From an uncultured Alphaproteobacteria bacterium (GTDB lineage Bacteria > Pseudomonadota > Alphaproteobacteria > Rhizobiales > Xanthobacteraceae), in assembly GCA_963831135.1 (NCBI GenBank), contig CAWHPH010000035.1, positions 8,704-72,703 on the forward strand: 64,000 nt of DNA. The letters are read 5' to 3'. The notes beneath the pieces were generated by a model. The model did not search any database, had not been told where the DNA came from, and saw only the letters and a program-made list of their open reading frames with translations. This document shows, in pieces, positions 2,585 to 19,319 of the stretch (positions are counted from its first letter, which is position 1; every line of letters starts with the position of its first letter). The translations under genes and the position numbers were made by a program.

Positions 2585-2961
2585 CACGGCGGGCCTTAAC
2601 CCGCATGTCGGCTCATGGCCCTTCTCTGACCTCAGGCGAGGTCTGAGTTGAGTCCGCAAAGCGTGGAATAGCGGACACTGCTCGCGGGCGTCTCTCAAGG
2701 GGCGCACTGTGACCGTCGCAACTTGCCCAAAGATCGAGATTGTGACGCGGCTCTGGGGATTCCATCCATCATGGTTTGTTCACGACGATGGATGCACTTG
2801 GTCGGCAGTCTGTGGCAGACAGACTATACAAAAAACCCCTTCGGCGACCGATGTCAGAAGACCAATAATTCCAAGGACCGTTAGTCCCCCGCAGATCCAT
2901 ACGACAAACATTTGAATCCAGTATGGCCTCCAGGTATGATCCACGTGCATAGGGGGTGAGG

Positions 2962-3585
2962 ATGGAGAAGCGGGCCGCAATCTACGTTCGCGTATCTACT
3001 GACAGGCAGACCATTGAGAACCAAATCCGCGAGCTACGTCGGATCGCCGAGCGCAGGGGCTGGGAGGTCGTCCGCGAATACCAGGATGCGGGAGTAAGCG
3101 GCGCCAAAGGACGAGAGGCCCGGCCTGGGCTGGACGAGATGCTCAAAGACGCGCAGCGGCGTCGGTTTGACCTTGTGATGGCTTGGGCAATCGACCGACT
3201 GGGCCGCTCCTTAATCGACCTGCTGGGTACAATACAAGCGTTGGAGGCATGCGGCGTCGACTTGTACCTCGACCAGCAATCGATCGACACGACCACGCCG
3301 GCCGGGCGGCTTATGTTTCAGATCACAGGAGCCTTTGCGGAGTTTGAACGGAGCATGATCCGCCAGCGAGTCCGCGCCGGACTAAAAAGGGCAGTGGAGA
3401 GCGGTAAGCAGCTTGGTCGGCCCAAGATCGACCCCGCCATGGAGAAGCTTATACAAGCTCAATTGCGAGCCAAAAAGGGCATGCTGGCCATAGCGCGGGA
3501 CCTCAAGGTCGGGACAGGTACCGTGCAGCGAGTTAAACGAGAAATGGAGGCGGCCGGCCCTTTCGGCGACGCCGCAGCCGCGTGA
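2962..3585 (+). CDS. serine recombinase (resolvase/invertase family)
   Basis: AAIYVRVSTDRQTIENQ catalytic-serine motif. C-terminal HTH (MLAIARDLKVGTGTVQRV). GGGGGTGAGG lies upstream of the ATG at 2962. Confidence 0.9.
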   Translation: MEKRAAIYVRVSTDRQTIENQIRELRRIAERRGWEVVREYQDAGVSGAKGREARPGLDEMLKDAQRRRFDLVMAWAIDRLGRSLIDLLGTIQALEACGVDLYLDQQSIDTTTPAGRLMFQITGAFAEFERSMIRQRVRAGLKRAVESGKQLGRPKIDPAMEKLIQAQLRAKKGMLAIARDLKVGTGTVQRVKREMEAAGPFGDAAAA

Positions 3586-3773
3586 GGCGATCCTGAGTTT
3601 CGCAGGTGTCCGGCTCGGCGAGCGCAGCGAATAGAGCCCGGTCCAGCGCAGCCTTACGCACCAAGCTTCGTCATTTCGATAAATTTCTGTACAACTTTTG
3701 AATTTACAAGATTGCGGTGGGACGGAAATCACGCGACGCATAAGGAATCCACGAGGACAAGCAGAGGAAGACG

Positions 3774-6520
3774 TTGAACGCCGTTGAGATTGAGCAAGCG
3801 ATTTCCGTCCTCGCTGAGCAGCCCTTCGATGCTCAGGAGTTTCCGTTTGCCTTCCTCGAAGCCTTCGGAAATAAGCCGACGACGATCAAGCGGCTGCGCT
3901 CGGGTGCGTCGAACAGGTCAGACCTGGGCGGCGTTCTTCAGACGAACAACATCCACATCGTGACCTCCCGGCCCGGCGAGGTGACGAAGACCCTTGCCGC
4001 GCTGAAGGCGAGCCCCGCTACTGCTAAGGCAAAGGCGCGATTCATCCTCGCGACCGACGGGGCGGACTTCGAGGCTGAGAACCTGGAGGCTGGCGAAACA
4101 GTCGCCTGCGCCTATCGGGACTTCCCAGACCATTTCGGCTTCTTCCTGCCGCTGGCCGGGATCACCACCGTCAAACAGGTCCGCGAAAGCTCCTTCGACA
4201 TCAGGGCGACAAGCCGTCTGAACCGACTCTATGTCGAGCTTCTGGAAGACAACCCCAAATGGGGAACCGCTGAGCGCCGGCACGACATGAACCATTTCAT
4301 GGCGCGGCTGATCTTCTGTTTCTTCGCCCAGAGAACAGACATCTTCATCGGAGACGATCTGTTCACGGCCACGATCGAGCAGATGAGCGCGAGGGACTCG
4401 TCCAACACCCATGAAGTGATTGGCGAACTATTCCGCGCGATGAACACCAAGATTGAGAATCGGGCGAGCGCCAAGATATCCCGTTGGGCAGACGCGTTTC
4501 CTTACGTGAATGGTGAATTGTTCTCGGGCAGTATCGACGTGCCCCGCTTCAGCCGGATCGCGCGCTCCTATCTCCTCCATATCGGCGGTCTGGATTGGAC
4601 AAAGATCAACCCTGATATCTTCGGCTCGATGATCCAAGCGGTCGCGGAGGACGAGGAGCGCGGCGCGCTGGGCATGCACTACACCAGCGTGCCGAACATC
4701 CTGAAAGTGCTCAATCCGCTGTTCCTCGACGACCTGCGCGCGCGGCTGAAGGAGGCGGGGGACAACCCCCGCACGCTGCTTAACCTGCGCAAGCGAATAT
4801 CGAAGATCAGGGTCTTCGATCCGGCCTGCGGCTCGGGCAACTTCTTGGTGATCGCCTACAAGGCAATGCGGGAGATTGAGGCCGAGATCAATAAGCGGCG
4901 CGGCGAAGCGGACCGCCGTACCGAAATCCCACTGACCAACTTCCGTGGGATCGAGCTGCGCGACTTCCCGGCCGAGATCGCGCGCCTCGCCCTCATCATC
5001 GCGGAATTTCAATGTGATGTGCTCTATCGCGGACAGAAGGAGGCCCTGGCCGAGTTTCTACCGCTCGACGCAGAGAACTGGATCACCTGCGGCAATGCGC
5101 TGCGGCTCGACTGGCTCAGCATCTGCCCACCAACAACGACTGGCGTAAAATTGCAATCCGATGACTTGTTCAACACACCATTGGATCAAGCGCAGATCGA
5201 TTTTCAGAATGATGGGGGAGAGACCTACTTCTGCGGAAATCCGCCATTCACGGGTACGCGCAAACAAACCGATGCGCAAAAGAGCGACTTGCAATTCGTC
5301 CTTTCTCAATTCACCACAAAGTGGAAAAATGCCGACTATGTAGGCGCGTGGCTAGTCAAAGCCGCTCAGTACAATGCGCATTGTCGTGCACCATTCGCCT
5401 TCGTCGCTACCAACAGCCTCTGCCAAGGGCAACAGGTTCCTATAACGTGGACGGTGCTGAGAGATTTGGGCTTCAGAATACGTTTTGCGTGCACATCTTT
5501 CATTTGGTCGAATTTAGCCAAGAACCGCGCTGGCGTGACAGTGATAGTTGTTGGCTTAGACGCTGGTGCGTCGGGTGAGCGATATCTGATAGCCGGGGAG
5601 AACAAGCGCGTCGTTGATAATATCAATCCATATCTGACTGAGCACAAAGTCGATGTGGTATCTCCGTCACGCCGCCCCCTGTTTGTGCCGGTCGCGATGG
5701 ACTATGGCGTTTACTATTCCAAATCGGCTGGTTTGATTTTGCAGCCAGAGGAAGCACGCAAGCTCATTCAGGACGGCTTGCCCACTGACTTAATAAAGCG
5801 GTTCCTCGGGTCGAGCGAGTTTATCAATGGTATAGAACGGTTATGTCTCTGGCTAGATGATGATACCCTGCATGTCGCCGATCAATTTCCAGAAGTTCGA
5901 CGGCGGATTGAGACGGTCCGCAATGATCGCTTAGAGACGGAGGATGCTGCGGTCAACAAGCTGGCGGATAGGCCACATCAGTTCGTGAACGCAAAGGCGA
6001 GGAACAGAAGAAGATTCTCATACCAATCGTGTCGTCTGAAAATCGAGAATATCTCCCGGTAGGGTTGGCGGACGGCAGTGTTATTCCGACTAACAAGTCA
6101 TTCTATATTGGTGATGGGCCATTGTGGTGCTTGGCGATCCTATCTTCTAGGCTCCATCTGACGTGGATCGCTGCAATTTGCGGGCGTTTGCGCTCCGACT
6201 ATTCCTATTCAAACACGCTCGGTTGGAACACGTTTCCTCTGCCTAATCTCACGGAAAAAAACAGGCAGGATATGACTCGATCCGCAGAAGAGATCGTCCT
6301 CAGACGTGAAATGCACTTCCCCGCATCTTTGGCCGATCTGTATGAAGTTAAAGATGGTGTGAGCCGGATGCCCGTTGACCTACGTGAGGCGCATGAACGG
6401 AACGACGAGGTGCTGGAACGCATCTATATCGGCCGCCGGTTTCGCAACGATACTGAGCGGCTAGAAAAGCTGTTCGAGCTTTACACCAAGATGATCGCGT
6501 CCAAACGGCAGCCCGCATAG
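3774..6520 (+). pseudogene. MmeI-family type IIL restriction-modification enzyme, one reading-frame break near 6000-6010
   Basis: ORFs 3774..6062 and 6029..6520 join to about 915 aa. N-terminus AISVLAEQPFDAQEFPFAFLEAFGNKPTTIKRL. Motif I FDPACGSGNFLV, motif IV GNPPF. C-terminal SSENREYLPVG...YSNTLGWNTFPLP continues in another frame. Confidence 0.8.
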
Positions 6521-6560
6521 ACGGGCCATCAGGACACAGACCTTTGAGGTGGGTTCTTGA

Positions 6561-6950
6561 ATGCATAAATTCGAGTGGGACGAGGACAAGAACGCGGAAA
6601 ATCTCGCCAAACACGGCATTTGTTTCGAAGAAGCCGCTACGATCTTCGAGGGACCGGTTTTTACGCTCGATGATGAAGGGTCGCACGAGGAGGTCCGCGA
6701 GCGAAGTTACGGACTCATCAATGGGATTGCAGTAATCTGTGTCATACATACCGATCGGGGCGGAGCGACACGGATCATCAGCGCGCGAAAGGCCACCAAA
6801 CACGAACGGGAACTTTTCAATGCCTATCTCAAAAAAGCGTGCAGCGAAATCGAGGCGATAGCCGAGAACGACATCGATACCTCGGATATCCCCGAGGCGG
6901 GCGAGGAGTTTTTCAAAAAGGCCAAGCTCGTGTTGCCGGGGGACTTCGAA
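6561..6950 (+). CDS. brnT: BrnT (DUF497) toxin read in frame into an N-terminal BrnA-antitoxin-like stub; no stop before the helicase remnant
   Basis: MHKFEWDEDKNAENLAKHGICFEEA...RIISARKATKHERELF is BrnT-like. The following ENDIDTSDIPEAGEEFFKKAK resembles only the start of BrnA. The frame stays open to 7976, which is an artefact of overlapping decayed genes. Confidence 0.7.
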
Positions 6951-6989
6951 CCTCCTCTCACTCGGGTGCGCGTGCCGCCGGTAGCTCGA

Positions 6990-9048
6990 CAGGCAGCTTC
7001 ATCGTACCCTCCATTTCGGTTTCCTACGCCCGCAACGGCAGCTCGACCAAGGCCAACGCGCTCGGCATGCGGCCGATGCAGGAGCGCGCCTATGAACGTC
7101 GCGGCGAGCAGTATCTTCTCATCAAATCGCCGCCCGCGTCAGGCAAGAGCCGCGCGCTCATGTTCATCGCCCTCGACAAGCTCGCGCAATCAGGGCCTCA
7201 AGCAGGCGATCATCGTCGTGCCGGAAAAAACCATCGGCGCGAGTTTCCATGACGAGCCGCTGACCAAGTTCGGCTTTTGGGCCGACTGGACGGTTCGAGC
7301 CGAAATGGAATCTCTGCGATGCACCCGGCGCGGACAACGGCGGCAAGGTCAATTCCGTCGGCACGTTCCTCGACAGCGACGACAAGGTGCTGGTCTGCAC
7401 CCACGCGACCTTCCGCTTCGCCGTGGACAAGTTCGGCGTCGAGAAATTCGACGACCGGCTGATCGCCGTGGACGAGTTCCACCACGTCTCCGCCGACCCC
7501 GACAGCAAGCTCGGCCAGCATCTCGGCCAGTTCATCGCCCGCGACCGGGTGCATATCGTCGCCATGACCGGCTCCTACTTCCGGGGCGACGCCGATGCCG
7601 GTGCTGGCCCCGCAGGACGAAGCGAAGTTCGATACCGTCACCTACACCTACTATGAGCAGCTCAATGGCTACGAATATCTCAAGCAGCTCGACATCGGCT
7701 ATTTCTTCTATTCCGGCTCCTATGCTGACGACATCCTCAACGTGCTCGACCCGGCTGAGAAAACGATCATCCACATCCCGAGCGTCAATTCGCGCGAAAG
7801 CACGAAGGACAAGATCAGGGAGGTCGAGCACATCATCGAGGCGCTGGGCGACTGGCAGGGGACCGACCCCGCGACCGGCTTCCAGTTGGTCAAGACGCCT
7901 GACGGCCGCGTGCTCCGCATCGCCGATCTGGTCGATGACGACCCTGCCAAGCGCGACCGCGTTTCCGCCGCGCTGAAAGACCCGGCACAGAAGAACAACC
8001 GCGATCATGTGGACATCATCATCGCGCTCGGCATGGCGAAGGAAGGCTTCGACTGGATTTGGTGCGAGCATGCGCTGACGGTCGGATACCGGTCGAGCCT
8101 CACCGAGATCGTGCAGATCATCGGCCGTGCGACCCGCGACGCGCCGGGCAAGACCCGCGCCCGCTTCACCAATCTGATCGCCGAGCCCGACGCCTCCGCG
8201 GAGGCCGTTACCGAGGCGGTGAACGATACCCTGAAGGCCATCGCCGCCAGCCTTCTGATGGAGCAGGTGCTCGCGCCGCGCTTCGAGTTCAAGCCGAAGA
8301 ATCCGACACAGCGGTCCGACTCCAGGCTTCGACTACGGCGAAGGCGGTTACGATCCCAACAAGTGCAATGTCGGCTTCAACGAGGAAACAGGACAGTTCC
8401 AGATCGAGATCAAAGGATTGGCTGAACCCAAGAGCAAGGAAGCGGCGCGCATCTGCCGCGAGGATTTGAACGAGGTGATTGCCGCCTTCGTTCAGGACAA
8501 GACCGCCATCGAACGCGGCCTCTTTGACGAGGAGCTGGTGCCCGAGGAACTGACGCAGGTTCGCATGGGCAAGATCATCAAGGACAAGTATCCCGAACTC
8601 GATGAGGAGGACCAGGAGGCGGTGCGCCAGCACGCCATCGCCGCCCTCAACCTGACGCAACAGGCCAAGCAGATCGCCGCGTCGAAGGCGGCGAATACCG
8701 AAGCAGAGCGCCAACACCGCCCTGATCGACGGCGTGCGCAAGTTTGCCATGGACGTGCGCGAACTGGATATCGACCTTATCGACCGGATCAATCCGTTCG
8801 GCGAAGCCTACGCTATCCTCGCCAAGACAATGAGCGAGGACAGCCTGAAACAGGTGGCGGCAGCGATTGCCGCCAAGCGCACCAGCCTGACGCCAGAGGA
8901 AGCGAAGGACCTCGCAGTACGCGCTGTCAAGTTCAAGAAGGAGCGCGGACGGCTCCCTTCGATCAGCTCGCAAGACGCATGGGAGAGGCGGATGGCCGAA
9001 GGCGCGGCCGCCTTCGTCCGCTTCAAGGATGAGGGGCGCTATGAGTGA
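6990..9048 (+). pseudogene. DEAD/DEAH-type (SF2) helicase, no start codon and at least five frame changes
   Basis: Pieces in three frames: SFIVPSISVSYARNG...LLIKSPPASGKSRALMF (Walker A), LIAVDEFHHVS (DExH), TEIVQIIGRATRD (motif VI). Frame changes lie near 7187, 7297, 7592, 8320 and 8700. Stop at 9046-9048. Confidence 0.75.
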
Positions 9049-10247
9049 CCTCGACCTCGACGAACTGCGCTCCGAACTCGACGACTTCGCCCAGTCGGAG
9101 AAGAAGGGCGGACGCTCCCCGCGCGAGGAGCGCATCATTGCCGGGTTCGATGAGATACAGCGGTTTGTCGAGAAATACGGCCGCGCCCCGCAGCATGGGG
9201 AAGATCGCGACATTTTCGAGCGGCTTTACGCCGTGCGACTCGATCGTCTGCGCGCGCTTCCGGAATGTCGTTCGCTTCTAAAGCCGTTCGACCATCAAGG
9301 GCTATTAGCCGGGGCGGAGGGCGCTGCCGTCGAGCCGGAGGAGACGATTGACGAGGACGAGTTGCTTGCCGAACTGGCCGGCGCGGCAGGCTCATCCGAC
9401 ATCACCGAGCTTCGCCATGTCCGTACCAGCGCCGAGAAACGCGCTGCCGAGGAGATTGCCAACCGGCAGAAATGCGAGGACTTCGATCGCTTCAAGCCGA
9501 TCTTTGAAAAGGTTCAGCAGGAGATCGTATCTGGCGTCAGAGCAGACACGCCCATTCGAATTAAAGGCGGAGATCAGGCCCGGTAGCTTGTTTATTGTCG
9601 GCGGACAGAAAGCTTATGTCGCCGAGATGGGGGAGGTTTTTACAAACGCGCAAGGCCGCTCGGACGCCCGTCTTCGCGTGATCTTCGATAATGGCACCGA
9701 GAGCAATTTGCTTATGCGCTCGCTTCAGCGGGCGTTGCATAAGGATGAAGCGGGTCGACGGATTACCGATCCCTTTGCCGGTCCACTTTTTTCCGACGAG
9801 TACACGGCGGACGATCAGGCGGCGGGTACAATCTATGTGCTGCGAAGCAAGTCTGAACATCCAATTATCGCGGCGAACCGCGACCTCGTGCACAAGATCG
9901 GCGTAACAAGCATGCGCGTCGAGCAACGCATCGCAGGTGCGAGACTTCAGCCGACATTTCTCATGGCAGATGTCGAAGTAGTCGCTACGTATGAGCTATA
10001 CAACATTAGTCGCACGAAACTGGAAAAGCTGATCCACCGGGTGTTTGATCCGGCGCGTCTCGATATTGAGATTAAAGACCGCTTCGGACAGCCGGTTGTC
10101 GTAAGAGAATGGTTCCTCGTTCCGCTGTTCGTAATAGATGAAGCAGTCAAAAAGATTAGGGATGGCACAATTCCCGGCTTTAAGTACGACCCGAAATCAG
10201 CCTCCTTGCTAGATGTCTCGGATCGTAAAGAGCATCGAGCGCTCTAA
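9029..10247 (+). pseudogene. GIY-YIG nuclease family protein with T5orf172/MUG113-type domain, one frame break near 9545
   Basis: ORFs 9029..9586 and 9348..10247. The ATG at 9041 overlaps the helicase stop (ATGAGTGA). C-terminal GTIYVLRSKSEHP...HKIGVTS...EWFLVPLFVIDEAV fits T5orf172. Confidence 0.75.
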
Positions 10248-10681: not shown

Positions 10682-11251
10682 GTGGCAGTCCGAGAGAAAG
10701 CGAGCCAACGTAGCCCGAACGTGAAACGCAGTCCGCGACCGCCTTGGGGCAATCTACTGGGCGGGAAACCGATTGAGCGTCAATTTTGGGTCTTTGGAAA
10801 GAAAATCGCCCGTCCCGAGCAGCGCTTGCGTGCGCGGCAATACGCCAAAATGCAGGAGCTTAAGCGGCACTATGGGATAGTCGGCGGGGACTATGGTTTC
10901 CCGATCGAGGGGGTCGCTCCAGCCGAATGGTTGCCCTGGTATGAACTCGCGTTAGCCATTGCACGTGACTTGGACCGCAGTTTGCAAATCGTTGATGCTC
11001 CTAAGCCCGGAAAAACGGCTGCGCGCTGGCGCGGCGGCCGGGAGGGAGCGGTGTTGTTGGAGATGGTCGAATTCGAATTGGAGCGCACGGCGCACCAGAA
11101 CCGAAGTCTGCGGTGGATTTTGGACCGACTGCGAAGGCGATTTCCTGAAATAGGCAAAATTCCACTTAACGAGCTTGTTGCGCGCTACTACGACGCCAAG
11201 AGTTACAGGGACAATACGAAGCGGTCAGACAAACGGACGCTCACTTCGTAA
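10682..11251 (+). CDS. hypothetical protein
   Basis: 189-aa ORF with a non-ATG start and no recognised domain. Confidence 0.4.
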   Translation: MAVREKASQRSPNVKRSPRPPWGNLLGGKPIERQFWVFGKKIARPEQRLRARQYAKMQELKRHYGIVGGDYGFPIEGVAPAEWLPWYELALAIARDLDRSLQIVDAPKPGKTAARWRGGREGAVLLEMVEFELERTAHQNRSLRWILDRLRRRFPEIGKIPLNELVARYYDAKSYRDNTKRSDKRTLTS

Positions 11252-11338: not shown

Positions 11339-11584
11339 ATGCGGCGTCCTTCCATTTTCAAAAAAACTGATGTGACCCGCGTCGCAAGGGCGGTAATGGC
11401 CGCCGGGCTAAATGTCGTTCGTGTCGAGATCAATCCACGAGATGGCACGATCACAGTGGTGCCCGGCAAACCCGAAGAAGTTCGCCAGACCGCGGAACTC
11501 ATTGCATTGAGCGGTGCAGCGGCCGTGAGTAATGATCTTGATCGCGAGCTCGCGGAGTTTAAGGCCCGGCATGATCAGGATTGA
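11339..11584 (+). CDS. hypothetical small protein upstream of integrase
   Basis: 81-aa ORF with an ATG start. It overlaps the integrase start by 14 nt. Confidence 0.5.
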   Translation: MRRPSIFKKTDVTRVARAVMAAGLNVVRVEINPRDGTITVVPGKPEEVRQTAELIALSGAAAVSNDLDRELAEFKARHDQD

Positions 11585-12566
11585 GCTCAAAGGTATCGTC
11601 AAGGTCAGGGCTAAGGGACGTACTTACTGGTACGCTTGGCGTGGCGGGCCGCGGCTGCGCGGCGAGCCGGGAACGCCAGCTTTTATGGCCTCCTACAATG
11701 AGGCGATCGCGGACCGGCGGATGCCGGAGCCTGGACGCTTCCGTTCGCTGGTCACGCTCTACCGGGGAAGCGCCGACTTTCAGAAGCTCGCGGCGTCAAC
11801 CCGGCGCAACTGGTCGCCCTGGCTCGACCACATCGGCGAGTACTTCGGCGATCTTAGCATCGCGCAGTTCGACCGCACAGAGAAGATTAGGCCGTTGATC
11901 CGGCGGTGGCGAAACCGCTACGCGGAGACACCTCGAACGGCCGACTACGGCCTACAGGTCCTCTCCCGCGTGCTGTCCTACGCCGTCGACCCACTCGGTA
12001 AGATCGCCGGCAACCCGTGCGAGGGCATCAAACGACTCTACAGCGTCGATCGGTCGGAGATCATCTGGACTGAGGCCGACATCGCGCGCCTAGAGGCGAC
12101 TTGCAGCGGGGAGATCGCGCACGCCGTCGACCTTGCCGCCCATACTGGCTTGCGGCTCGGCGACCTGTTGCGGCTGTCATGGTCGCACGTCGGCGAAGAC
12201 CAGATCGCCATCACAACGGGCAAGAGCAAGCATCGCCGGCAGGCGATCAAGGTGCTGGCCGCCATCCCCAAGCGGTCGCCCACGATCCTTACCAATAGCA
12301 AAGGCCGGCCCTGGACGAAGGACGGCTTCGGCTCCTCGTTCAGCAAGGCGAAAGCCGCCGCCGGTTTGGAGGAGGCCGACCTCCACTTCCACGACCTCCG
12401 CGGCACGGCAGTGACGCGGTTCTACACGGCCGATCTGCCGGAGCGCATCATCGCCGAGGTGATGGGCTGGGAGGAGGAGCACGTCGCCCGCATCGTCCGC
12501 CGCTACGTGGGCCGCAATGCCGCGACCCTCGCGATGATCGGCAAGCTTAACAAAGGAGGAACGTAA
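11571..12566 (+). CDS. tyrosine recombinase/integrase
   Basis: MIRIELKG... start. Catalytic-region pattern AHTGLRLGDLLRLSW...HFHDLRGTAVTRF...VMGWEEEHVARIVRRY. Confidence 0.9.
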   Translation: MIRIELKGIVKVRAKGRTYWYAWRGGPRLRGEPGTPAFMASYNEAIADRRMPEPGRFRSLVTLYRGSADFQKLAASTRRNWSPWLDHIGEYFGDLSIAQFDRTEKIRPLIRRWRNRYAETPRTADYGLQVLSRVLSYAVDPLGKIAGNPCEGIKRLYSVDRSEIIWTEADIARLEATCSGEIAHAVDLAAHTGLRLGDLLRLSWSHVGEDQIAITTGKSKHRRQAIKVLAAIPKRSPTILTNSKGRPWTKDGFGSSFSKAKAAAGLEEADLHFHDLRGTAVTRFYTADLPERIIAEVMGWEEEHVARIVRRYVGRNAATLAMIGKLNKGGT

Positions 12567-12614: not shown

Positions 12615-12689
12615 TGGAGCGGGCGATGGGAATCGAACCCACGACACTCAGCTTGGGAAGCTGATGTTCTACCACTGAACTACGCCCGC
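12615..12689 (-). tRNA. tRNA-Gly (anticodon CCC), CCA encoded
   Basis: Hand-folded sequence: GCGGGCGTAGTTCAGTGGTAGAACATCAGCTTCCCAAGCTGAGTGTCGTGGGTTCGATTCCCATCGCCCGCTCCA. 7-bp acceptor stem, anticodon loop TTCCCAA, T-loop TTCGATT. Confidence 0.93.
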
Positions 12690-12780: not shown

Positions 12781-13081
12781 GAAATCCGCCGACACTATAT
12801 TATGGGCAGCGGGAAGCGCCAACTCCCCGCCGCGTATGGCCCGGCGCTCGCGCCGGGCCATTTTCATTTTGGACTTGACCGGCTTTTTAAGCTGGTCAAT
12901 TCGCCCGTAAGTTATTGCGGCGAAGTTGCAAACCCCTTCCCGAACCTCCACAGAGATAACCACGGTTGCGTCGGCGACTCGCGCGGGTGTATGAAAGATG
13001 CACCGTAGCGGCCCGCGTGCGCTCCTAACTGAGACACGCATTCCCCGCGACAGTCCCCACCGATCAGATAACCGAACGAGC

Positions 13082-13141
13082 GGCACTACATACGTTTTGT
13101 AGTGCCGGGGACGAGCCGCGCTACATCCGTTTTGTAGCGCG
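13082..13141. promoter_or_regulatory. two related 25-bp palindromes (putative operators) upstream of the Xis-like gene
   Basis: GGCACTACAtacgttTTGTAGTGCC (13082-13106) and CGCGCTACAtccgttTTGTAGCGCG (13117-13141). Centres are 35 bp apart. The second ends 16 nt before the ATG at 13157. Confidence 0.6.
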
Positions 13142-13156
13142 GGTGCGGAGCACATC

Positions 13157-13357
13157 ATGCGCGAACAACGCTTGTGGCCGATTTGGCTTTCGATTTCCGA
13201 AGCGTCCCGCGCGCTCGGTATCGAACGCAAAATTCTCTACGGATGGGTTGTCCAAGGGATGCCGATCTACAAGTGCGGAGTTCGCCGCAAGGTGCTGGTC
13301 GAGGACCTTGTTCGGTACATCCGCGCAAATCTGAAAACAGTGGAGCGTAAGTCATGA
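13157..13357 (+). CDS. excisionase/MerR-like helix-turn-helix DNA-binding protein
   Basis: 66 aa. LSISEASRALGIERKILYGWVVQGMPIYKCG is typical of the Xis/AlpA-like HTH family. It sits at the element end opposite the integrase. Confidence 0.7.
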   Translation: MREQRLWPIWLSISEASRALGIERKILYGWVVQGMPIYKCGVRRKVLVEDLVRYIRANLKTVERKS

Positions 13358-13896
13358 GCCAACTTCCCAATTACGCCGCAGAGGGCCGGATCAAAGCAGT
13401 GTGCGCAGAGAACGGCGTTCTCGCCGATTGCCTTGACGACATCGCACTGCAATTCCGCGAAGGCAAGTTGAGCGAGGCCGAGCTTCCCGCGAAGATCAAA
13501 GAGTGGAAGGCAACGCCCGATCATCATTACTTTCATCGCGGCGAAGGGGACGACAAAGAGCTTTTCGTTCGAGCGTTCGGCGAGTCGCCGTCGCTTCAAG
13601 CCAAGGGCGAAGTGTTCAAGAAGTACGGAGCGGCACGCGCGGCGGAAGTCGCTGCGCAGTTCGGGAACACGATCACCGAACTCAAGGCGGGCAAGACGCC
13701 CGACAGTTTCAAGACGAACGGCAACGGCGGCGATCACTCCGCTAACCCGTTCACTCGACTCCGCGTGAACGGAAAGATCAACGAAGCCGCAGCGGCCGAA
13801 GTCGCAAAGATGACCAAGGCGCTCGGCACCAAAAAAGTAGAAGCCATCGCACGCGCGGCCGGGATGACAATCACCGGCTTGCCGTTGCGGGCTTAA
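13354..13896 (+). CDS. hypothetical protein
   Basis: 180-aa ORF with an ATGA overlap onto the upstream gene. Confidence 0.55.
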   Translation: MSQLPNYAAEGRIKAVCAENGVLADCLDDIALQFREGKLSEAELPAKIKEWKATPDHHYFHRGEGDDKELFVRAFGESPSLQAKGEVFKKYGAARAAEVAAQFGNTITELKAGKTPDSFKTNGNGGDHSANPFTRLRVNGKINEAAAAEVAKMTKALGTKKVEAIARAAGMTITGLPLRA

Positions 13897-13908
13897 GGGG
13901 AGGCTCGA

Positions 13909-14271
13909 ATGGATAGTCGCACCAAAGAACATCTGCAATCGCAGGACACGGACATCGCTCGGCGTTCGAGCGTGCCTAAGCGGCATGTCCTCGTCACGCA
14001 CCCCGGCATGGCTTCGCAGACGCGCGGCACGCTTGGCGGACCAACACAAGGCAACCCACCGGACGCCTCGTCCCCGTCGCCGACTGATCCGTCGCGGCAG
14101 GGCAAGAGCTTCGCCGTTCCTGCCATCACGCACGGCATGTCGAGTCGTTCTGATCGCGGTCACTACGATCCGTCGTTCGCGCACGCGATCTTTTCTGAGG
14201 CCAGCCGCGACGTGACCGACTTCGCGCGGGACCTTCACACGGCTTTGCCGGGTGCAGGCAAAGAGGACTAA
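13909..14271 (+). CDS. hypothetical protein (low complexity)
   Basis: 120-aa ORF in the same operon orientation. Confidence 0.4.
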   Translation: MDSRTKEHLQSQDTDIARRSSVPKRHVLVTHPGMASQTRGTLGGPTQGNPPDASSPSPTDPSRQGKSFAVPAITHGMSSRSDRGHYDPSFAHAIFSEASRDVTDFARDLHTALPGAGKED

Positions 14272-14276
14272 CGACC

Positions 14277-14495
14277 ATGCGCGGCGAAATCAAATTCTTC
14301 GACGACAAACGCGGGTTCGGTTTCATCAAGATCGCGGGCGAGCAAAAAGATTTGTTCGTTCACATCACTGCCATTGAGAACGGGCCGCCGTTCACGGGCG
14401 ACATGGTGGAATTCGACATGGGGAACAACAAGCGCACCGGCAAGCAAGAGGCGCACAACGTCAAACTTGTAGGAGGGGGCAGTGGGAGCACCTAA
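14277..14495 (+). CDS. cold-shock domain (CspA-like) protein
   Basis: GEIKFFDDKRGFGFIKIAGEQKDLFVHITAI matches the RNP1/RNP2 layout of cold-shock domains. Confidence 0.85.
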   Translation: MRGEIKFFDDKRGFGFIKIAGEQKDLFVHITAIENGPPFTGDMVEFDMGNNKRTGKQEAHNVKLVGGGSGST

Positions 14496-14826
14496 TCAAC
14501 CACGCGACTCGCACGGCAGATGGGCCGCCGGAAATTCGGGTTCGTCTGCATCGGGCGACCATCAATCCGTGTCGCCGAGCCTCACTCACCGCAACGTCTC
14601 TGGCATCGCGGTGCCGCGCTCCATTCCTGTTGTTCGTCTCGACAACAAGGGAAGCCCGGACGTTAAGTCGTTCAAGGGTTCGGCACGATCAGACAAGATC
14701 GCGGCACTACGCGCCGTCGATCAGCGACACTTCGGAATTCCGGGTGATGTGGGAAATCGAGTCGGCAAGATGTTGCCCAAAGACCTACGCGGACCATCCA
14801 AGGCGGGATGGCCTTTCAACAATTGA
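14482..14826 (+). CDS. hypothetical protein
   Basis: 114-aa ORF with a 14-nt overlap onto csp. Contains NQPRDSHGRWAAG, a motif common in phage proteins. Confidence 0.45.
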   Translation: MGAPNQPRDSHGRWAAGNSGSSASGDHQSVSPSLTHRNVSGIAVPRSIPVVRLDNKGSPDVKSFKGSARSDKIAALRAVDQRHFGIPGDVGNRVGKMLPKDLRGPSKAGWPFNN

Positions 14827-14842
14827 ACCACAGGAGGCTCAC

Positions 14843-15337
14843 ATGGCCGTACAGACTGGAACTGGAAAGAAGCCGAAGCCGCCGGGCGCACCGGCTACGC
14901 TTAAGCAGGGCACGCGCCCGGCTGGCGAGACCTACAAGTCCGACTTGACCAAGGGCAATCTCGCCCGTGGTGGACTCGGACCTGTACGCAAGGACCCGAT
15001 CACGGGCGCGGAAGTCGCGCGCACCGGCTACGGTCAAAACGCATTCTCCGGCGCGTCAAGTTCGGGAGTCGAGGAAAGCTCCAAGCTGTCCGACTTCGAC
15101 ATCACGGTGGATGATCCGGCACTCGACAAGCTGGTCAAGCAAGGCATCGGCTCAAAGGTGAACGATGCCGATCAGGAAATGGTCGGACAAGAGCGGCCGG
15201 TCAGCGACGAACCGATCACACCGTCCTACGGCATGAAGTCGCCGAACATGAAGGCGGGCAGCTATGGAACGCTACCAGCAAAAGGACAGGGCACGTCAAC
15301 GGTCGCAACGGCGCAGCCGGTTCGTAAGCCGAGCTAA
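14843..15337 (+). CDS. hypothetical, probably disordered protein
   Basis: The internal ATG of ORF 14630..15337 is preceded by CAGGAGG. Confidence 0.5.
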   Translation: MAVQTGTGKKPKPPGAPATLKQGTRPAGETYKSDLTKGNLARGGLGPVRKDPITGAEVARTGYGQNAFSGASSSGVEESSKLSDFDITVDDPALDKLVKQGIGSKVNDADQEMVGQERPVSDEPITPSYGMKSPNMKAGSYGTLPAKGQGTSTVATAQPVRKPS

Positions 15338-15395
15338 CGTCACGGTCGGGCCGTTCACAGCAACGGCTCGGCGCTTGACCGATCTAAGTCTCGCC

Positions 15396-15539
15396 ATGGT
15401 CATTCCGTGGCGTGACTACAGCCAAGTCGGCATGACAACCGGCTGGCCGCAGTGGTGGATGAATGACGAGAACGAGTCGGAACGGATGCAAGAGATTTTG
15501 GACGCAACAGAGGACGAGGTTCTGCCATGGGAAATGTAG
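15396..15539 (+). CDS. hypothetical small protein
   Basis: Part of ORF 15264..15539. The start choice is uncertain. Confidence 0.3.
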   Translation: MVIPWRDYSQVGMTTGWPQWWMNDENESERMQEILDATEDEVLPWEM

Positions 15540-15844
15540 ACCTGTTTGATGCTCACAACCGACTCAACTTTCCGACTGACGAGGCTGTCGCTTCGATGCC
15601 GCCGGAAGTGCAAGAGCGGTTCAAGCCGGTTCGAGACGCGAAGGCCGTTCTCGATGCCGCGACCAAACACCGGGAGTCGGTAGCGCAGCGCATCGCGGCG
15701 AACGACGCCGAGCGCGCGACGACAACGGAGCAAATGAACATGATGCGCCCGAGTGGTACGGACGCGGATCGAACCCGCAACATCAAGGCGCACATCGCAA
15801 GCGAACAGCGTCAGAGACAACTCGAAAGAGGACTACCGGAATAA
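15527..15844 (+). CDS. hypothetical protein
   Basis: 105-aa ORF followed by a CCCCCG-N10-CGGGGG hairpin (15851-15872). Confidence 0.5.
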   Translation: MGNVDLFDAHNRLNFPTDEAVASMPPEVQERFKPVRDAKAVLDAATKHRESVAQRIAANDAERATTTEQMNMMRPSGTDADRTRNIKAHIASEQRQRQLERGLPE

Positions 15845-16053
15845 AAAGCTCCCCCGTTGTCATGAGCGGGGGTCTCGGCGGCGTGGACCACAGACACGCC
15901 CGCTACCGGCCGGGCGGCGGTCATCCTCCCGCCGTCCGGTCACCTTTCAAGGTTCGTCCGCTCCTGCACTCTACTGCCAGCGGGGGACGGCGGACGGAGC
16001 GGCCCGAGTATCTCTCCCTGAGTGCTCGGGCCGACCAAATAACGGAGTGAGCC

Positions 16054-16362
16054 ATGAGCGTGCACGATGTAATGCCACCGAAGCCGAAGGCCAAGAAGCC
16101 GGAGCCGTTCAACGTGCGCGCTGGTCGAATTCCGGTGCTCGATCACAAGAAGATCATGCGCGGTCATGTTGGGCCGAAGGCCACCGAAGCGACGTTGCCC
16201 CGGTTCGGAGTCAAGCACGGCGGCTCGTTGCAGACGGTGCAGGGTCGTCAGTGTTGGGTCGGTAACGAGCCGCTCGCCGTCGTCAGTGCAGAAGGCACGA
16301 ACCCGAACGCCGAGCTTCCACCGGCTCCCCCTCCACCGTCGAAACTCAAGGGCCAGTCATGA
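16054..16362 (+). CDS. hypothetical protein
   Basis: 102-aa ORF with GGAG upstream of the ATG. Confidence 0.5.
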   Translation: MSVHDVMPPKPKAKKPEPFNVRAGRIPVLDHKKIMRGHVGPKATEATLPRFGVKHGGSLQTVQGRQCWVGNEPLAVVSAEGTNPNAELPPAPPPPSKLKGQS

Positions 16363-17258
16363 GAAATCTAAAGGGCAAGGAATTCGAGGCCAAGCTCGCC
16401 GAAATTCTTGACACCGTTTCGCAGGACCCGGCGATGGAGCGCGCTATGCGATTGGCTGGCTACAGCCCAAAGATGATTTGGCTTTGGCTCAAGCGCAGCG
16501 GCGAAGGCGATACTAAGTATTTGGTCGCGTGGCCCGACAAGAAGGCGCGGAAAATCCAATTCTGCGATGCCGTTGTTCTCGCGCGCCGATTGCACAAAGT
16601 AAAAATGGACGCAACCATTCGCTCGGCCTGCGATGTCGGAATTCCCGAAGTTCAAATGCACGATGGTGCCGTTCTCTATGAGAAAGATGCGGCGCTTCTC
16701 GCCGAGTGGGGAGACGACAAAGAAGCGGCCGAACGCATCGGCGGCGTAATCGACTTCCCGTACAAGCACATCATCAACGAGCAAGGCAAGCGTGAGCGAA
16801 TTCCGCTCGTCCTCTACCGGCCTGCACCGGCTGCGCTGCGCCAGCATGTCATCCGCTCGCTAATCCCGTCCGAATTCAACCCGCCTGAACATCGGGTGAC
16901 ATCAACCGAGCACAGCGGGTCGGTGCTGATCTTGAACGCGAACCATCCGCCTTACGCGAAGGATTATCAGGCACCGCCGAGTCCGATCAAACAAGACTTG
17001 CAACAGCGCCTCGCCGATCTACGAGCACGCGGCCCGGCGCACAAGCACGCGACCGATAAGAACGGACTCAAAACCATTCCGAAGATCGGCACTGGATCAG
17101 TCAGCAACGATCCGCCGGAGCGGAATGGATACGGCGCAGCGCCGCAGGTTGATGCCGATGGTCATATCGTAGGTGCGAAGGTGCAGCCGATGATTAACGG
17201 CCGCACGGGTCAGCCCGCGCCGGGAGGTTTCAGCGCACTTACAGGACGGCCGACATGA
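16359..17258 (+). CDS. hypothetical protein (possible HTH/small-terminase-like N-terminus, weak)
   Basis: 299-aa ORF with an ATGA overlap upstream. Confidence 0.5.
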   Translation: MRNLKGKEFEAKLAEILDTVSQDPAMERAMRLAGYSPKMIWLWLKRSGEGDTKYLVAWPDKKARKIQFCDAVVLARRLHKVKMDATIRSACDVGIPEVQMHDGAVLYEKDAALLAEWGDDKEAAERIGGVIDFPYKHIINEQGKRERIPLVLYRPAPAALRQHVIRSLIPSEFNPPEHRVTSTEHSGSVLILNANHPPYAKDYQAPPSPIKQDLQQRLADLRARGPAHKHATDKNGLKTIPKIGTGSVSNDPPERNGYGAAPQVDADGHIVGAKVQPMINGRTGQPAPGGFSALTGRPT

Positions 17259-17572
17259 CCGATTTTATTGACAAGCTCACGCACAGCGAACCCGAGGACG
17301 TGCAGCAAGTCGGCACGGTCAATGCGCTCGGCGTGCGCAAGGTCAACATGATGGCCGTTCCCGAGCGCGCCGTGAGCGCAGAGGACATCGAAGCGCGGGA
17401 ACAAGCATTTCTCGACGCACCACAATTCCCTATCCCCTTTTGGGATTTGGACGACGGCCCGGCGCTCGAACCTTTGATGACTCAGGACCACGCCTTGCTA
17501 CGCGCGGCAGGCATCACCGCAGAAGAATGGGAACAAATCGTTCTCGAAGATCAATTGGAGAAAAGCAAATGA
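17255..17572 (+). CDS. hypothetical protein
   Basis: 105-aa ORF with ATGA overlaps at both ends. Confidence 0.5.
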   Translation: MTDFIDKLTHSEPEDVQQVGTVNALGVRKVNMMAVPERAVSAEDIEAREQAFLDAPQFPIPFWDLDDGPALEPLMTQDHALLRAAGITAEEWEQIVLEDQLEKSK

Positions 17573-18270
17573 CAAATCCACTCCGTCAGCAAATGGTCGC
17601 ACGGGCCGTGCAGCAAACGCAGAACGGCAAGATGGCGATCACCCTTCGCAACGTCGCCATGTTCCTGCCGGGACCGACCGCGTTCGATCCGAAGCTCAAG
17701 GCGCAAGTGGACTTTGAGCTTGATGCCGAGGACTTGGCACCGTATCTGCCCGCGCCGACGCCAGCGGTGGAAACACCTTCGCTCGCCGAGCGCCTGGCCG
17801 ATGTGGAAATCGAATTCGTGCCGCCGACTCCGGTTGAGCCGCCGGAGGTTCGTTATCAGCGACTCCAAAACCGTATGCTCGAACTGGAACGCGAACGCGT
17901 CGATCTTCGCTTCACCTACGACACGGCGATCCGCGACGAAATCAACGCGCGCAATGAACTGGACAAGATCGCCCGCGTGTTCATGAACGGGTTTGTGCGG
18001 ATCAGCCCGGACGAGTTGCTTAAGCAACACGCGGCATCCGAAGCCGAGACGCGCCGCAAGATCGCGGCCGGAGAAATTCCGAAGCCGCACCGCGTCAACA
18101 CCGTGGGGCCGTCTGCGCTTGATCGCTACATGGCTGCGCAGCGCGGCGGCAATCCCGGCTTTGCTGGTCGCGGCTATGCGCGCGGCGCTCAGCCCGCCAA
18201 CAAGCGCCTCATGTTCGATCCGAAGGCATTGCCCGGCTCGGGCCTGCCACAACTCAAGGAACCCGTATGA
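17569..18270 (+). CDS. hypothetical protein with coiled-coil-like middle
   Basis: MTNPLRQQ start is coupled to the upstream stop. Confidence 0.5.
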   Translation: MTNPLRQQMVARAVQQTQNGKMAITLRNVAMFLPGPTAFDPKLKAQVDFELDAEDLAPYLPAPTPAVETPSLAERLADVEIEFVPPTPVEPPEVRYQRLQNRMLELERERVDLRFTYDTAIRDEINARNELDKIARVFMNGFVRISPDELLKQHAASEAETRRKIAAGEIPKPHRVNTVGPSALDRYMAAQRGGNPGFAGRGYARGAQPANKRLMFDPKALPGSGLPQLKEPV

Positions 18271-18339
18271 AGCTCCCGCATTACATCCGGCTTGTAATGC
18301 GGGTCATCTGGCGGATTTGGGTGATGGAGCACTTCCACC

Positions 18340-18564
18340 ATGAGCACCAACGTAAAGCAACCGAAACGGAGCCGGGCTAAGCCGCTCGTTGCCGATGTGT
18401 CGGACTCGGCGTGCTTCGATGATCTTCGGTGGAAGGCTGGCACCGCCTACGCGACGTTTGCGAAGGACGGTTCGCAGTACACCTACGACATGAGCCGCGC
18501 GGACTTCAAAGAATGGATGGACAACCCGCTCGGCGAATTCTTCAACGCGAACGTAAGAGACTGA
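18340..18564 (+). CDS. KTSC domain-containing protein
   Basis: ...FDDLRWKAGTAYATFAKDGSQYTYDMSRADFKEWMDNPLGEFFNANVR resembles the KTSC family. Confidence 0.6.
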   Translation: MSTNVKQPKRSRAKPLVADVSDSACFDDLRWKAGTAYATFAKDGSQYTYDMSRADFKEWMDNPLGEFFNANVRD

Positions 18565-18567
18565 CCG

Positions 18568-19017
18568 ATGTCACGCGGACCGTGGAAGGCAGAGACACAC
18601 GCCCGGCGCAACGGCGGCGACGGTCATGGCCCGCTGTCTAATGCGCAGCGGACGCCGAACGATCACGTTGAGCCATGGAAGGATAAGCGCAAGGAAGCTC
18701 GGGCAAAGGTGAAGGCCGAGCTTGATGCGCTGCGCAGTAGCATTCTGTGGAAGGTGGCGAGTCAGAACCGCAAAGAGGCGTTGGCGCGCCACGCGCCGCG
18801 CTACATCGGGCACCCTTGCATCAAACACGACAACGCCGAGCGGTACACGGTGACGGGTCACTGTGTCGTCTGCGCGCGGGAAATCAGAGACGAAGTGCGC
18901 GGCATCGCCGTTAAGCCGCGCCTTGATCGCAAGCTACGGCCGACAGTCGCGGCAATGCGCAAGCCGGTGATCGCCGTGAGCCGGGGCTTCGATGACGAAC
19001 GGGCAGAAGTGTCATGA
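18568..19017 (+). CDS. hypothetical protein with GxPCxxH...RYxxxGxCxxC motif
   Basis: 149-aa ORF containing IGHPCIKHDNAERYTVTGHCVVCAREI. Confidence 0.5.
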   Translation: MSRGPWKAETHARRNGGDGHGPLSNAQRTPNDHVEPWKDKRKEARAKVKAELDALRSSILWKVASQNRKEALARHAPRYIGHPCIKHDNAERYTVTGHCVVCAREIRDEVRGIAVKPRLDRKLRPTVAAMRKPVIAVSRGFDDERAEVS

Positions 19018-19319
19018 GCATGGAAACGGATGAACTGGAATTCGATTTGACGAAACGCCGATGCGAGCGCGAAGGCTTCTATCTCGGGCGTCACAAGAAT
19101 TTCGATCCTGCGATGGGCGGCGGCGACTTGTACCTGATGCCGAAACAGAAGTTCGGCGGCGAGCGCAATCCGTCGCTGTTGAGCTACGCGACCAGCGACC
19201 AAATTCATCGCTATCTGAATGACGCAATTTCTCGAAAAAGAACGGAAGCCGTTGCGCATCCGTCAGGCCGTCAGGTCGTCAGATCATCGGAGCTTGAAGT
19301 CATGAACAAACAAACCTAA
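19014..19319 (+). CDS. hypothetical protein
   Basis: 101-aa ORF with an ATGA overlap. Its 3' end contains a CGTCAGG repeat cluster. Confidence 0.5.
   Translation: MSMETDELEFDLTKRRCEREGFYLGRHKNFDPAMGGGDLYLMPKQKFGGERNPSLLSYATSDQIHRYLNDAISRKRTEAVAHPSGRQVVRSSELEVMNKQT
19252..19282 (+). repeat. CGTCAGG 8-bp-period repeat cluster 1
   Basis: ttgcgcatc-CGTCAGGc-CGTCAGGt-CGTCAGa. Confidence 0.8.

Follow-up and report, generated by a model that had tools for sequence, protein, structure and literature searches.

The combination of YeeA, also called DnmA, with YeeB and YeeC has been described since 2009 (PMC2731913, PMC7261158, PMC9973331, bioRxiv 10.1101/2021.05.05.442762). Morgan et al. (2009; PMC2731913), who treated it under a second group of MmeI homologues, reported that the three genes are invariably linked and proposed that the cluster acts as a type I-like restriction-modification system. 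In the papers cited here, functional evidence on the trio amounts to one positive phenotype, the protection that yeeAB of Vibrio crassostreae 7F1_18 gives against one phage group, and to negative results from Bacillus subtilis, which keeps the trio with no detectable restriction. A recombinase adjoins dnmA in B. subtilis (PMC9973331). The trio is absent from PADLOC-DB v2.0.0 as a named system, and NCBIfam gives no system name for the locus studied here. A sequence-only reading of this locus had not recognized its helicase-nuclease pair as a named system and had stated that an existing name would count against its proposal. The first statement holds for PADLOC-DB v2, but the pair has been described as part of YeeA/DnmA-YeeB-YeeC, and therefore the proposal is refuted on that point.

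The window analyzed here is a 64,000-nucleotide stretch of a draft alphaproteobacterial genome. We judge it probable that positions 3774-10247 form a single operon of the DnmA(YeeA)-YeeB-YeeC kind on an integrative island beside a tRNA-Gly gene and, as part of that same judgment, that the single-base indels which interrupt it are artifacts of the assembly. All genes described below lie on the forward strand except the tRNA gene. Just 5′ of the trio is a serine recombinase (resolvase) at 2956-3585 (Pfam Resolvase, E = 8.7e-47). It is followed by an MmeI-family N6-adenine DNA methyltransferase of DnmA/YeeA type with its own target-recognition domain (3774-6520; Pfam, PADLOC, and tblastn), a BrnT ribonuclease toxin as cargo between methyltransferase and helicase (6561-6845; Pfam BrnT_toxin, E = 3e-23), a short BrnA-like remnant open reading frame (6820-6965), a YeeB-type SF2 helicase in six pieces (7004-9048), and a YeeC-type GIY-YIG nuclease in two pieces (9041-10247; Pfam MUG113, E = 1.3e-14, and T5orf172, E = 1.8e-11, both C-terminal). 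The helicase was delimited by tblastn, DNA alignment, and domains on intact relatives and on the window pieces. Its stop overlaps the nuclease start at 9041-9048 (ATGAGTGA), so the translational coupling of the pair that had been noted earlier is borne out by the sequence. A 189-residue open reading frame with no Pfam match (10682-11251) separates the nuclease from the tyrosine integrase of the island (11532-12566; Pfam Phage_integrase, E = 3.3e-15), beyond which ARAGORN places a tRNA-Gly(CCC) on the reverse strand (12615-12689). Because its 3′ end faces the integrase, this tRNA gene is the likely integration site of the island; a search for an att repeat of it to the left of the island, by blastn-short and by exact words of 12 or more bases, gave nothing convincing. 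The earlier description of a defense or mobile island is thus sound, with resolvase, MmeI-like gene, BrnT, integrase, and tRNA-Gly all in place.

The methyltransferase carries the Pfam domains MmeI_N, MmeI_hel, MmeI_Mtase, MmeI_TRD, and MmeI_C and matches the PADLOC profile REase_MTase_IIG at E = 9e-198. Its phmmer alignment with MmeI (5hr4; E = 2.8e-94) begins by pairing residue 87 of the query with residue 107 of MmeI, the latter lying past the MmeI nuclease region to judge by the catalytic positions of that enzyme. When the N-terminal 120 residues were searched alone, no match to MmeI was found. Across six orthologues, the conserved N-terminus reads SDLGGVLQTNNIHI, with no E-x-K after the conserved D. 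On this sequence evidence, the N-terminus is predicted to be without the PD-ExK nuclease of MmeI. The gene changes from frame 3 to frame 2 near 5990-6015 (tblastn), a break that is placed by protein alignment only, as no close DNA relative spans the target-recognition region. A further break lies in the cargo, where, relative to two relatives with the same BrnT cargo (L055 and L080), a one-base deletion near 6845 removes the BrnT stop. Neither break was on the list drawn up from the sequence alone. The BrnA-like frame that follows is also broken by this deletion; in the relatives it is ∼47 residues long and lacks the C-terminal part. We recognized it from alignment with the relatives and from the sequence, and the assignment is weak because Pfam gives no match.

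Intact proteins from Nitrobacter, Sinorhizobium, and Roseomonas, placed on the window by tblastn, define the boundaries of the helicase and nuclease pieces. The helicase runs in frame 2 (7004-7195), frame 3 (7188-7295), frame 1 (7300-7611), frame 2 again (7595-8305), frame 3 (8313-8678), and frame 1 (8701-9045), which makes five frame changes, all of them +1; the nuclease runs in frame 2 (9041-9541) and then frame 3 (9543-10238). These pieces are 84-97% identical in amino acid sequence to the intact proteins. DNA alignment with five intact relatives resolves one surplus base in the window near each of positions 7186, 7294, 7596, and 8306 in the helicase and 9542 in the nuclease, while the fifth helicase change is a net +1 within a variable linker at 8678-8701. 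The five helicase changes and the one in the nuclease that had been called from the sequence are therefore all present, as is the loss of the helicase start, there being no ATG, GTG, or TTG at the homologous position. On intact relatives and window pieces alike, the helicase shows a DEAD/ResIII core, Helicase_C, and a C-terminal PMBR-like motif, and by gene order and domains we assign helicase and nuclease as the putative YeeB- and YeeC-type partners of the upstream MmeI-like methyltransferase. In PADLOC-DB v2.0.0, profile matches of the intact helicase are limited to weak ones to PbeA in the Helicase_C region (E = 5.7e-7), and the intact nuclease matches no profile; the window pieces behave alike. 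Intact orthologues have a Walker A (GKS) and a DEFH motif in the helicase and a conserved R and E in the GIY-YIG domain. Neither protein matched a solved structure by sequence. For an intact orthologue of the nuclease, AlphaFold2 gave a model of only moderate quality (mean pLDDT 71.8, pTM 0.38), and a Foldseek search of the PDB with it returned nothing at E ≤ 0.001. We note, and draw no inference from, weak Foldseek hints of an EF-P/eIF5A-like fold, provisionally in the middle beta segment of this model.

The nine or so single-base indels in methyltransferase, BrnT, helicase, and nuclease most likely reflect errors in the consensus of the draft assembly, because essential genes of the same genome show breaks of the same sort. 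Its rpoC (contig C4, near 74.15 kb) is split by a +1 frame change. By comparison with three same-genus relatives, a single base is also inserted in each of three conserved genes of the window, namely a GGDEF-EAL gene, an unnamed 510-residue gene, and cobT (near 59.8 kb). Near the end of another contig (C61; lnt and miaB at 72-77 kb), miaB, corC, and lnt are spread over two or three frames each and are intact in a relative. A codon-model scan of the whole 5.73-Mb genome gave 277 candidate frame switches with an excess of +1 over the opposite direction (170 vs 107), at twice the expected frequency within 5 kb of contig ends. By eye, the ten verified insertion sites share no motif beyond a GC-rich context.

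The main alternative is that the indels are real, the trio and its BrnT cargo having been silenced recently by repeated frameshifts, for example because restriction was costly or autoimmune. The 3.3-kb helicase/nuclease region does hold six candidate switches, a density ∼40-fold that of the genome on average, and the cluster is set 16-18 kb into a contig of 76 kb, whereas most other clusters sit at a contig end. It also stands apart in direction, every helicase and nuclease break being +1 where contig-end clusters are mixed. All four genes of the unit are affected. Genuine inactivation of restriction systems is common in nature. Morgan et al. (PMC2731913) verified that MmeI-family genes are disrupted in some sequenced isolates, and the B. 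subtilis trio, as noted above, restricts nothing detectable. The unusual break density that had been remarked on is thus genuine; however, comparable clusters occur elsewhere in the genome, in housekeeping operons. A single frameshift suffices to inactivate a gene, and eight or nine neutral indels predict tens of substitutions and some in-frame stops. There is no in-frame stop in any piece of the trio, and the helicase has no private change at any of 354 columns conserved to 97% or more, where 81 intact homologues have a median of 2 (maximum 9). The nuclease (3 private changes in 103 conserved columns) and the methyltransferase (4 in 285) speak somewhat for decay, being toward the high end of what is normal without exceeding it. 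The direction of the breaks does not fit decay, as those in helicase and nuclease are all +1 insertions, while bacterial pseudogene decay is usually deletion-biased. Taken with the same type of single-base insertion in the essential rpoC and lnt, with the similar insertions in three conserved genes of the window, and with the miaB/corC/lnt clusters, the absence of amino acid decay in the helicase makes the real inactivation inferred from the sequence alone unlikely. This assembly has many single-base indels, and calls of pseudogenes or decay from it need read support before they are interpreted.

The gene linkage bears on a second alternative, namely, that helicase and T5orf172 nuclease are an independent two-gene defense system beside an unrelated MmeI-type restriction enzyme. 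The overlap of the two genes agrees with it, as do the BrnT cassette that separates the methyltransferase gene from the pair and the PADLOC v2 score, by which that gene encodes a complete type IIG enzyme. We compared 80 loci, the closest of at least 594 retrieved from species-representative genomes, whose helicases come from several phyla and share 80% or more identity with the query. Among loci with sufficient flanking sequence, the methyltransferase lies upstream on the same strand as the helicase in 52/52, and the nuclease lies downstream of the helicase in 76 of 77. Methyltransferase and helicase genes abut or overlap directly in 35/66 loci. Together with the N-terminus that does not align to the MmeI nuclease region and the invariable linkage in the literature, this makes the two-gene reading very improbable, and the two-gene unit that had been proposed gives way to a trio that includes the methyltransferase. 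In five annotated plasmid loci, the helicase gene follows that of the methyltransferase, with or without cargo in between, and precedes that of the GIY-YIG nuclease, and stops overlap starts. Intact orthologous trios occur on plasmid 2 of Nitrobacter hamburgensis X14 and on Agrobacterium rubi pW2_73_5. Plasmids of Moraxella and Ligilactobacillus share the gene order, the Lactobacillales and Moraxella copies being 44-47% identical. The homologues in the trio on a plasmid of Moraxella osloensis, the species that was the second example of Morgan et al., are 47% identical, and a control search with T5orf172 found its match in B. subtilis. The locus adds a further example of this trio, which is very widespread.

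Phase variation is frequent in restriction systems, and the frame changes might in principle be regulatory; we reject phase variation and programmed frameshifting as scarcely credible because the break sites are without repeats, none of those in helicase and nuclease lying in a homopolymer run or simple repeat, while six independent sites, all shifting the frame in the same direction, would need to switch jointly and 79/80 homologous helicases are plain single-frame genes (one of the 80 other loci has a multi-frame helicase, and none has a multi-frame nuclease).

Between the methyltransferase and helicase genes, 31/66 loci carry cargo. Observed cargo includes RhuM (PADLOC candidate PDC-S05), Schlafen-AlbA_2, YhcG/DUF1016, zeta toxin, and GmrSD, together with PIN toxins, RelE/ParE, and DarTG-like genes. 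The pairing of BrnT with a truncated BrnA occurs at three loci, one of them in the window. On balance, we favor the view that YeeABC-type operons have, at the methyltransferase-helicase junction, a slot dedicated to the insertion of toxin-antitoxin and defense cargo. This suggests that expression of the cargo may be coupled to the restriction module or that the cargo may serve as its backup. The variable slot is the one aspect of these operons that may merit separate study.

From the proposal of Morgan et al. (2009) and the domain content, a mode of action can be outlined. The methyltransferase would use its own target-recognition domain to recognize an asymmetric site, where it would methylate one adenine on one strand, thereby marking host DNA. 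On unmodified DNA, its non-nuclease N-terminal domain would recruit or activate the helicase and the GIY-YIG nuclease, which would translocate along the DNA and cut it, giving type I-like restriction.

Among known systems, the locus is closest to the described DnmA(YeeA)-YeeB-YeeC trios. It shares with them an MmeI-like methyltransferase predicted to lack PD-ExK, an SF2 helicase, and a GIY-YIG/T5orf172 protein in identical order, as well as a setting that was acquired horizontally and includes recombinase and toxin-antitoxin genes; it differs in belonging to a very conserved clade, in its BrnT cargo, and in being frame-broken in the assembly. MmeI itself (type IIL/IIG) has homologous methyltransferase, helical spacer, target-recognition, and C-terminal domains and probably has single-strand adenine methylation in common with the trio (PMC2731913). 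However, the first 86 residues of the window methyltransferase do not align to the nuclease region of MmeI, and in the trio it is presumably the helicase and the GIY-YIG protein, as separate polypeptides, that carry out cleavage.

The BREX methyltransferase PglX and DrmMI of class 1 DISARM are likewise MmeI-related, are without nuclease activity, and have helicase-type partners. The PglX and DrmMI profile matches of the locus are weak and fall far under the curated cut-offs, and no PglZ, BrxC, BrxL, DrmA, DrmB, or DrmC-type gene was found in it. Type I restriction-modification (HsdM/HsdS/HsdR) resembles the trio in keeping the modification and recognition module apart from an ATP-dependent motor and nuclease, although Pfam, NCBIfam, and PADLOC detect neither HsdS nor HsdR, either here or at orthologous loci that are intact. 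In the trio, methyltransferase and target-recognition domain form one fused protein, and the nuclease is a GIY-YIG protein on its own polypeptide, in contrast to the PD-ExK nuclease fused to the motor in type I enzymes. Type I operons also carry comparable cargo, and the slot of YeeABC-type operons resembles that of hsd operons in gathering RhuM, YhcG/DUF1016, Schlafen-AlbA_2, toxins, and GmrSD within the operon.

A tblastn search of PLSDB with one helicase piece matched 186 plasmids, and amino-acid identity reaches 95% even in distant hosts. The same operon is annotated on plasmids of Nitrobacter, Sinorhizobium, Methylosinus, Agrobacterium rubi, Synechococcus, Moraxella osloensis and Ligilactobacillus, in the order ∼920-aa "DNA methyltransferase", optional insert, ∼690-aa DEAD/DEAH helicase and ∼400-aa GIY-YIG nuclease, with overlapping stops and starts. 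At the Roseomonas locus the methyltransferase position is left without an annotated gene, and the Synechococcus plasmid helicase shares 88% identity with a window piece. At least 594 helicase relatives were retrieved from species-representative genomes, and the best 80 of these were used for the linkage counts. Each shares 80% identity or more with the query, and their hosts belong to Proteobacteria, Acidobacteriota, Gemmatimonadota, Bacteroidota, Nitrospira, Verrucomicrobiota and Bacillota. Such identity across these groups points to horizontal transfer of one trio clade in very recent times and on a very wide scale. Among these best 80, the methyltransferase lies upstream of the helicase in 52/52 loci with enough flank and the nuclease lies downstream in 76/77. 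Because of this linkage, the two-gene unit proposed by the sequence-only reading gives way to a trio, to which the MmeI-like gene of the window (3774-6520) belongs. In a relative from the same order, contigs C2 and C3 carry three copies of the methyltransferase gene's 5′ part (77-78% identical), a single complete helicase-nuclease stretch and isolated short pieces of helicase; this genome may contain the system in several copies or in rearranged form.

The trio has been described before. Morgan et al. 2009 (PMC2731913) distinguished two sets of MmeI homologues, the second of which is without PD-ExK, differs over the first ∼100 residues and lies "invariably" beside a DEAD helicase resembling YeeB and a GIY-YIG protein resembling YeeC; they proposed that it works like a type I system and modifies a single strand. 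Studies of dnmA-yeeB-yeeC in B. subtilis (Nye et al. 2020, PMC7261158, and a 2023 mBio paper, PMC9973331) confirmed that the synteny is conserved and that YeeC has a T5orf172 domain, and found neither a restriction nor an anti-phage phenotype. In Vibrio crassostreae, yeeAB confers resistance to a single phage group (Piel et al., bioRxiv 10.1101/2021.05.05.442762). The pair is thus the YeeB/YeeC half of a known trio. The view that helicase plus T5orf172 is an unnamed combination holds for PADLOC-DB v2, where neither protein has a named model, but not for the literature (PMC2731913, PMC7261158, PMC9973331). Solved structures gave no sequence match for helicase or nuclease.

The window methyltransferase aligns with MmeI (PDB 5hr4, E=2.8e-94) only from residue 87, corresponding to MmeI residue 107, and residues 1-120 searched alone give no MmeI match. 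In the orthologues this N-terminus is conserved and is without an E-x-K motif. The motifs PPASGKS, DEFH and QIIGRATR are present in intact helicase orthologues. For the nuclease, structure prediction on an intact orthologue gave only a moderate model, which has no significant PDB neighbor and adds nothing firm. Domain content, gene order, translational coupling and the missing MmeI-type nuclease alignment are direct observations. Drawing further on Morgan 2009 and on general knowledge of MmeI, type I and GIY-YIG enzymes, we suggest that the methyltransferase would read an asymmetric site and methylate one adenine, that unmodified sites would license the SF2 motor, and that the GIY-YIG nuclease would cut afterwards.

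A stop-to-stop listing of 6.0-10.6 kb shows overlapping plus-strand ORFs chained across changing frames. On this strand, Pfam assigns the MmeI-type enzyme to 3744-6062 plus 5972-6520 and BrnT from 6561, and in the 6.0-10.6 kb region also a Helicase_C fragment, a PMBR-like motif and, at the 3′ end, T5orf172/MUG113. When intact plasmid proteins of Nitrobacter hamburgensis X14, Sinorhizobium americanum and Roseomonas mucosa were placed on the window by tblastn, the helicase fell into six pieces: 7004-7195 (frame 2), 7188-7295 (frame 3), 7300-7611 (frame 1), 7595-8305 (frame 2), 8313-8678 (frame 3) and 8701-9045 (frame 1). The nuclease (9041-9541, frame 2; 9543-10238, frame 3) and the methyltransferase (3774-6005, frame 3; 5987-6514, frame 2) each gave two plus-strand pieces. 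Aligned at the DNA level (MAFFT) with five intact relatives, the window has one surplus base near each of 7186, 7294, 7596, 8306 and 9542, and a net +1 change in the variable helicase linker at 8678-8701; none of these breaks lies in a homopolymer run. The broken pair described from sequence is therefore present, including the nuclease frame change near 9542, the stop/start overlap ATGAGTGA at 9041-9048 and the lost helicase start, where ATG, GTG and TTG are all absent from the homologous position. To this we add the loss of the BrnT stop near 6845 through a one-base deletion, in comparison with two loci that have the same BrnT cargo (L055, L080).

The same breaks had been read as real inactivation. 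Most probably, on four indirect lines of evidence, the apparent heavy decay is instead an assembly artefact in a draft prone to indels, because rpoC (outside the window) and three conserved genes of the window are broken too, break clusters occur elsewhere and the broken genes show no decay. The essential rpoC lies in two frames (71191-74250 and 73955-75514 of contig C4); the +1 change falls within Rpb1 domain 5 near 74150 and identifies the assembly as prone to indels. Compared with three same-genus genomes, exactly one surplus base is found in each of three conserved chromosomal genes of the window, a GGDEF-EAL gene (∼47760, minus strand), a 510-aa gene with no Pfam match (∼57696, plus) and cobT (DBI_PRT; ∼59808, plus). 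A genome-wide scan by seven-state Viterbi, with a codon-usage model trained on this genome, recovers 6/6 breaks of the pair, and all ten sites checked against homologues (these six, rpoC and the three window genes) proved true. It lists 277 candidate switches, 170 of +1 type vs 107 of −1 type, clustered mostly near contig ends (64 observed vs 33 expected within 5 kb of an end). In the largest cluster (C61, 73.0-76.9 kb), miaB, corC and lnt each occupy two or three frames; a relative has single intact ORFs. Clusters of 3-9 candidates lie near contig ends there and at C49 154.7-157.7, C2 49.0-53.1, C33 33.0-34.2 and C1 1-7 kb; by translation reading only, the C49 cluster falls in a wecB-like gene and the C2 cluster in a thrC-like gene. 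A further candidate lies near 62100 of the window.

Genuine decay of the trio genes, which we consider unlikely, would fit a cluster that is contig-internal and has ∼40 times the mean break density of the genome, with helicase and nuclease breaks all +1, and true disruption of restriction genes is frequent. The claimed break density is real, but it is not peculiar to this locus, as the C61 cluster illustrates. Against decay, essential and conserved genes of the same genome are broken alike, and no piece of the broken trio genes has an in-frame stop. Eight or nine neutrally accrued indels would be expected to come with tens of substitutions, and even an indel:substitution ratio of 1:2 would predict about four changes at conserved helicase columns. 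At columns at least 97% conserved among homologues, the window has 0 private changes over 354 helicase columns (others' median 2, maximum 9, 81 sequences), 3 over 103 nuclease columns (median 1) and 4 over 285 methyltransferase columns (median 2), all within the normal range. Moreover, among the best 80 of at least 594 loci, only one other helicase and no nuclease uses more than one frame, so the five-fold broken helicase is an outlier of the assembly rather than of the family. For that one helicase (L096:7001-9446, from a metagenome-assembled genome), the match exceeds the usual length by ∼400 nt, suggesting an insertion or frameshift. If the island were under-represented in the reads, or ∼80% identical in other community members, consensus polishing could fail as at contig ends; this idea would reconcile the artefact reading with the points that speak for real decay.

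A serine recombinase (2956-3585) precedes the trio, which is followed by a 189-aa ORF with no family match, a tyrosine integrase (11532-12566) and tRNA-Gly(CCC), its 3′ end toward the integrase; no att repeat was found. The island is accessory, since only one other genome in the genus sample had a match, and that partial. Short plus-strand coding segments in changing frames occupy 13000-19300, with a candidate −1 switch near 17202 and no Pfam matches for the ORFs tested; this run may represent a further mobile element or additional assembly breaks.

The most interesting by-product of the analysis is a cargo slot between the methyltransferase and helicase genes. Among the best 80 of at least 594 loci, the two genes abut (gap ≤70 nt) in 35/66 and are separated by an insert of 0.4-4.2 kb in 31/66. 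In these loci (L025-L104) and the plasmid loci L003, L005, L006 and L106, the slot holds RhuM (PADLOC candidate PDC-S05), Schlafen-AlbA_2/HATPase_c_4 proteins, YhcG/DUF1016 nucleases, a zeta-toxin-like kinase, GmrSD, PIN toxins, RelE/ParE, DUF559, an IS66 transposase and several families without a match (260, 277, 337, 286, 448 and 137 aa); that of Moraxella holds RelB/YafQ together with DUF4433 and macro-domain (DarTG-like) genes. BrnT with a BrnA-like stub of ∼47 aa after it is found in the window, one Dongiaceae genome and one Bradyrhizobium genome. The window ORF after BrnT (6820-6965; ∼47 aa in L055 and L080) has no Pfam BrnA match and, judged from sequence, appears to be a truncated antitoxin ending just before the helicase start. 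Type I hsd operons carry the same kinds of cargo inside, and the contents of the slot therefore fit a type I-like reading of the trio.
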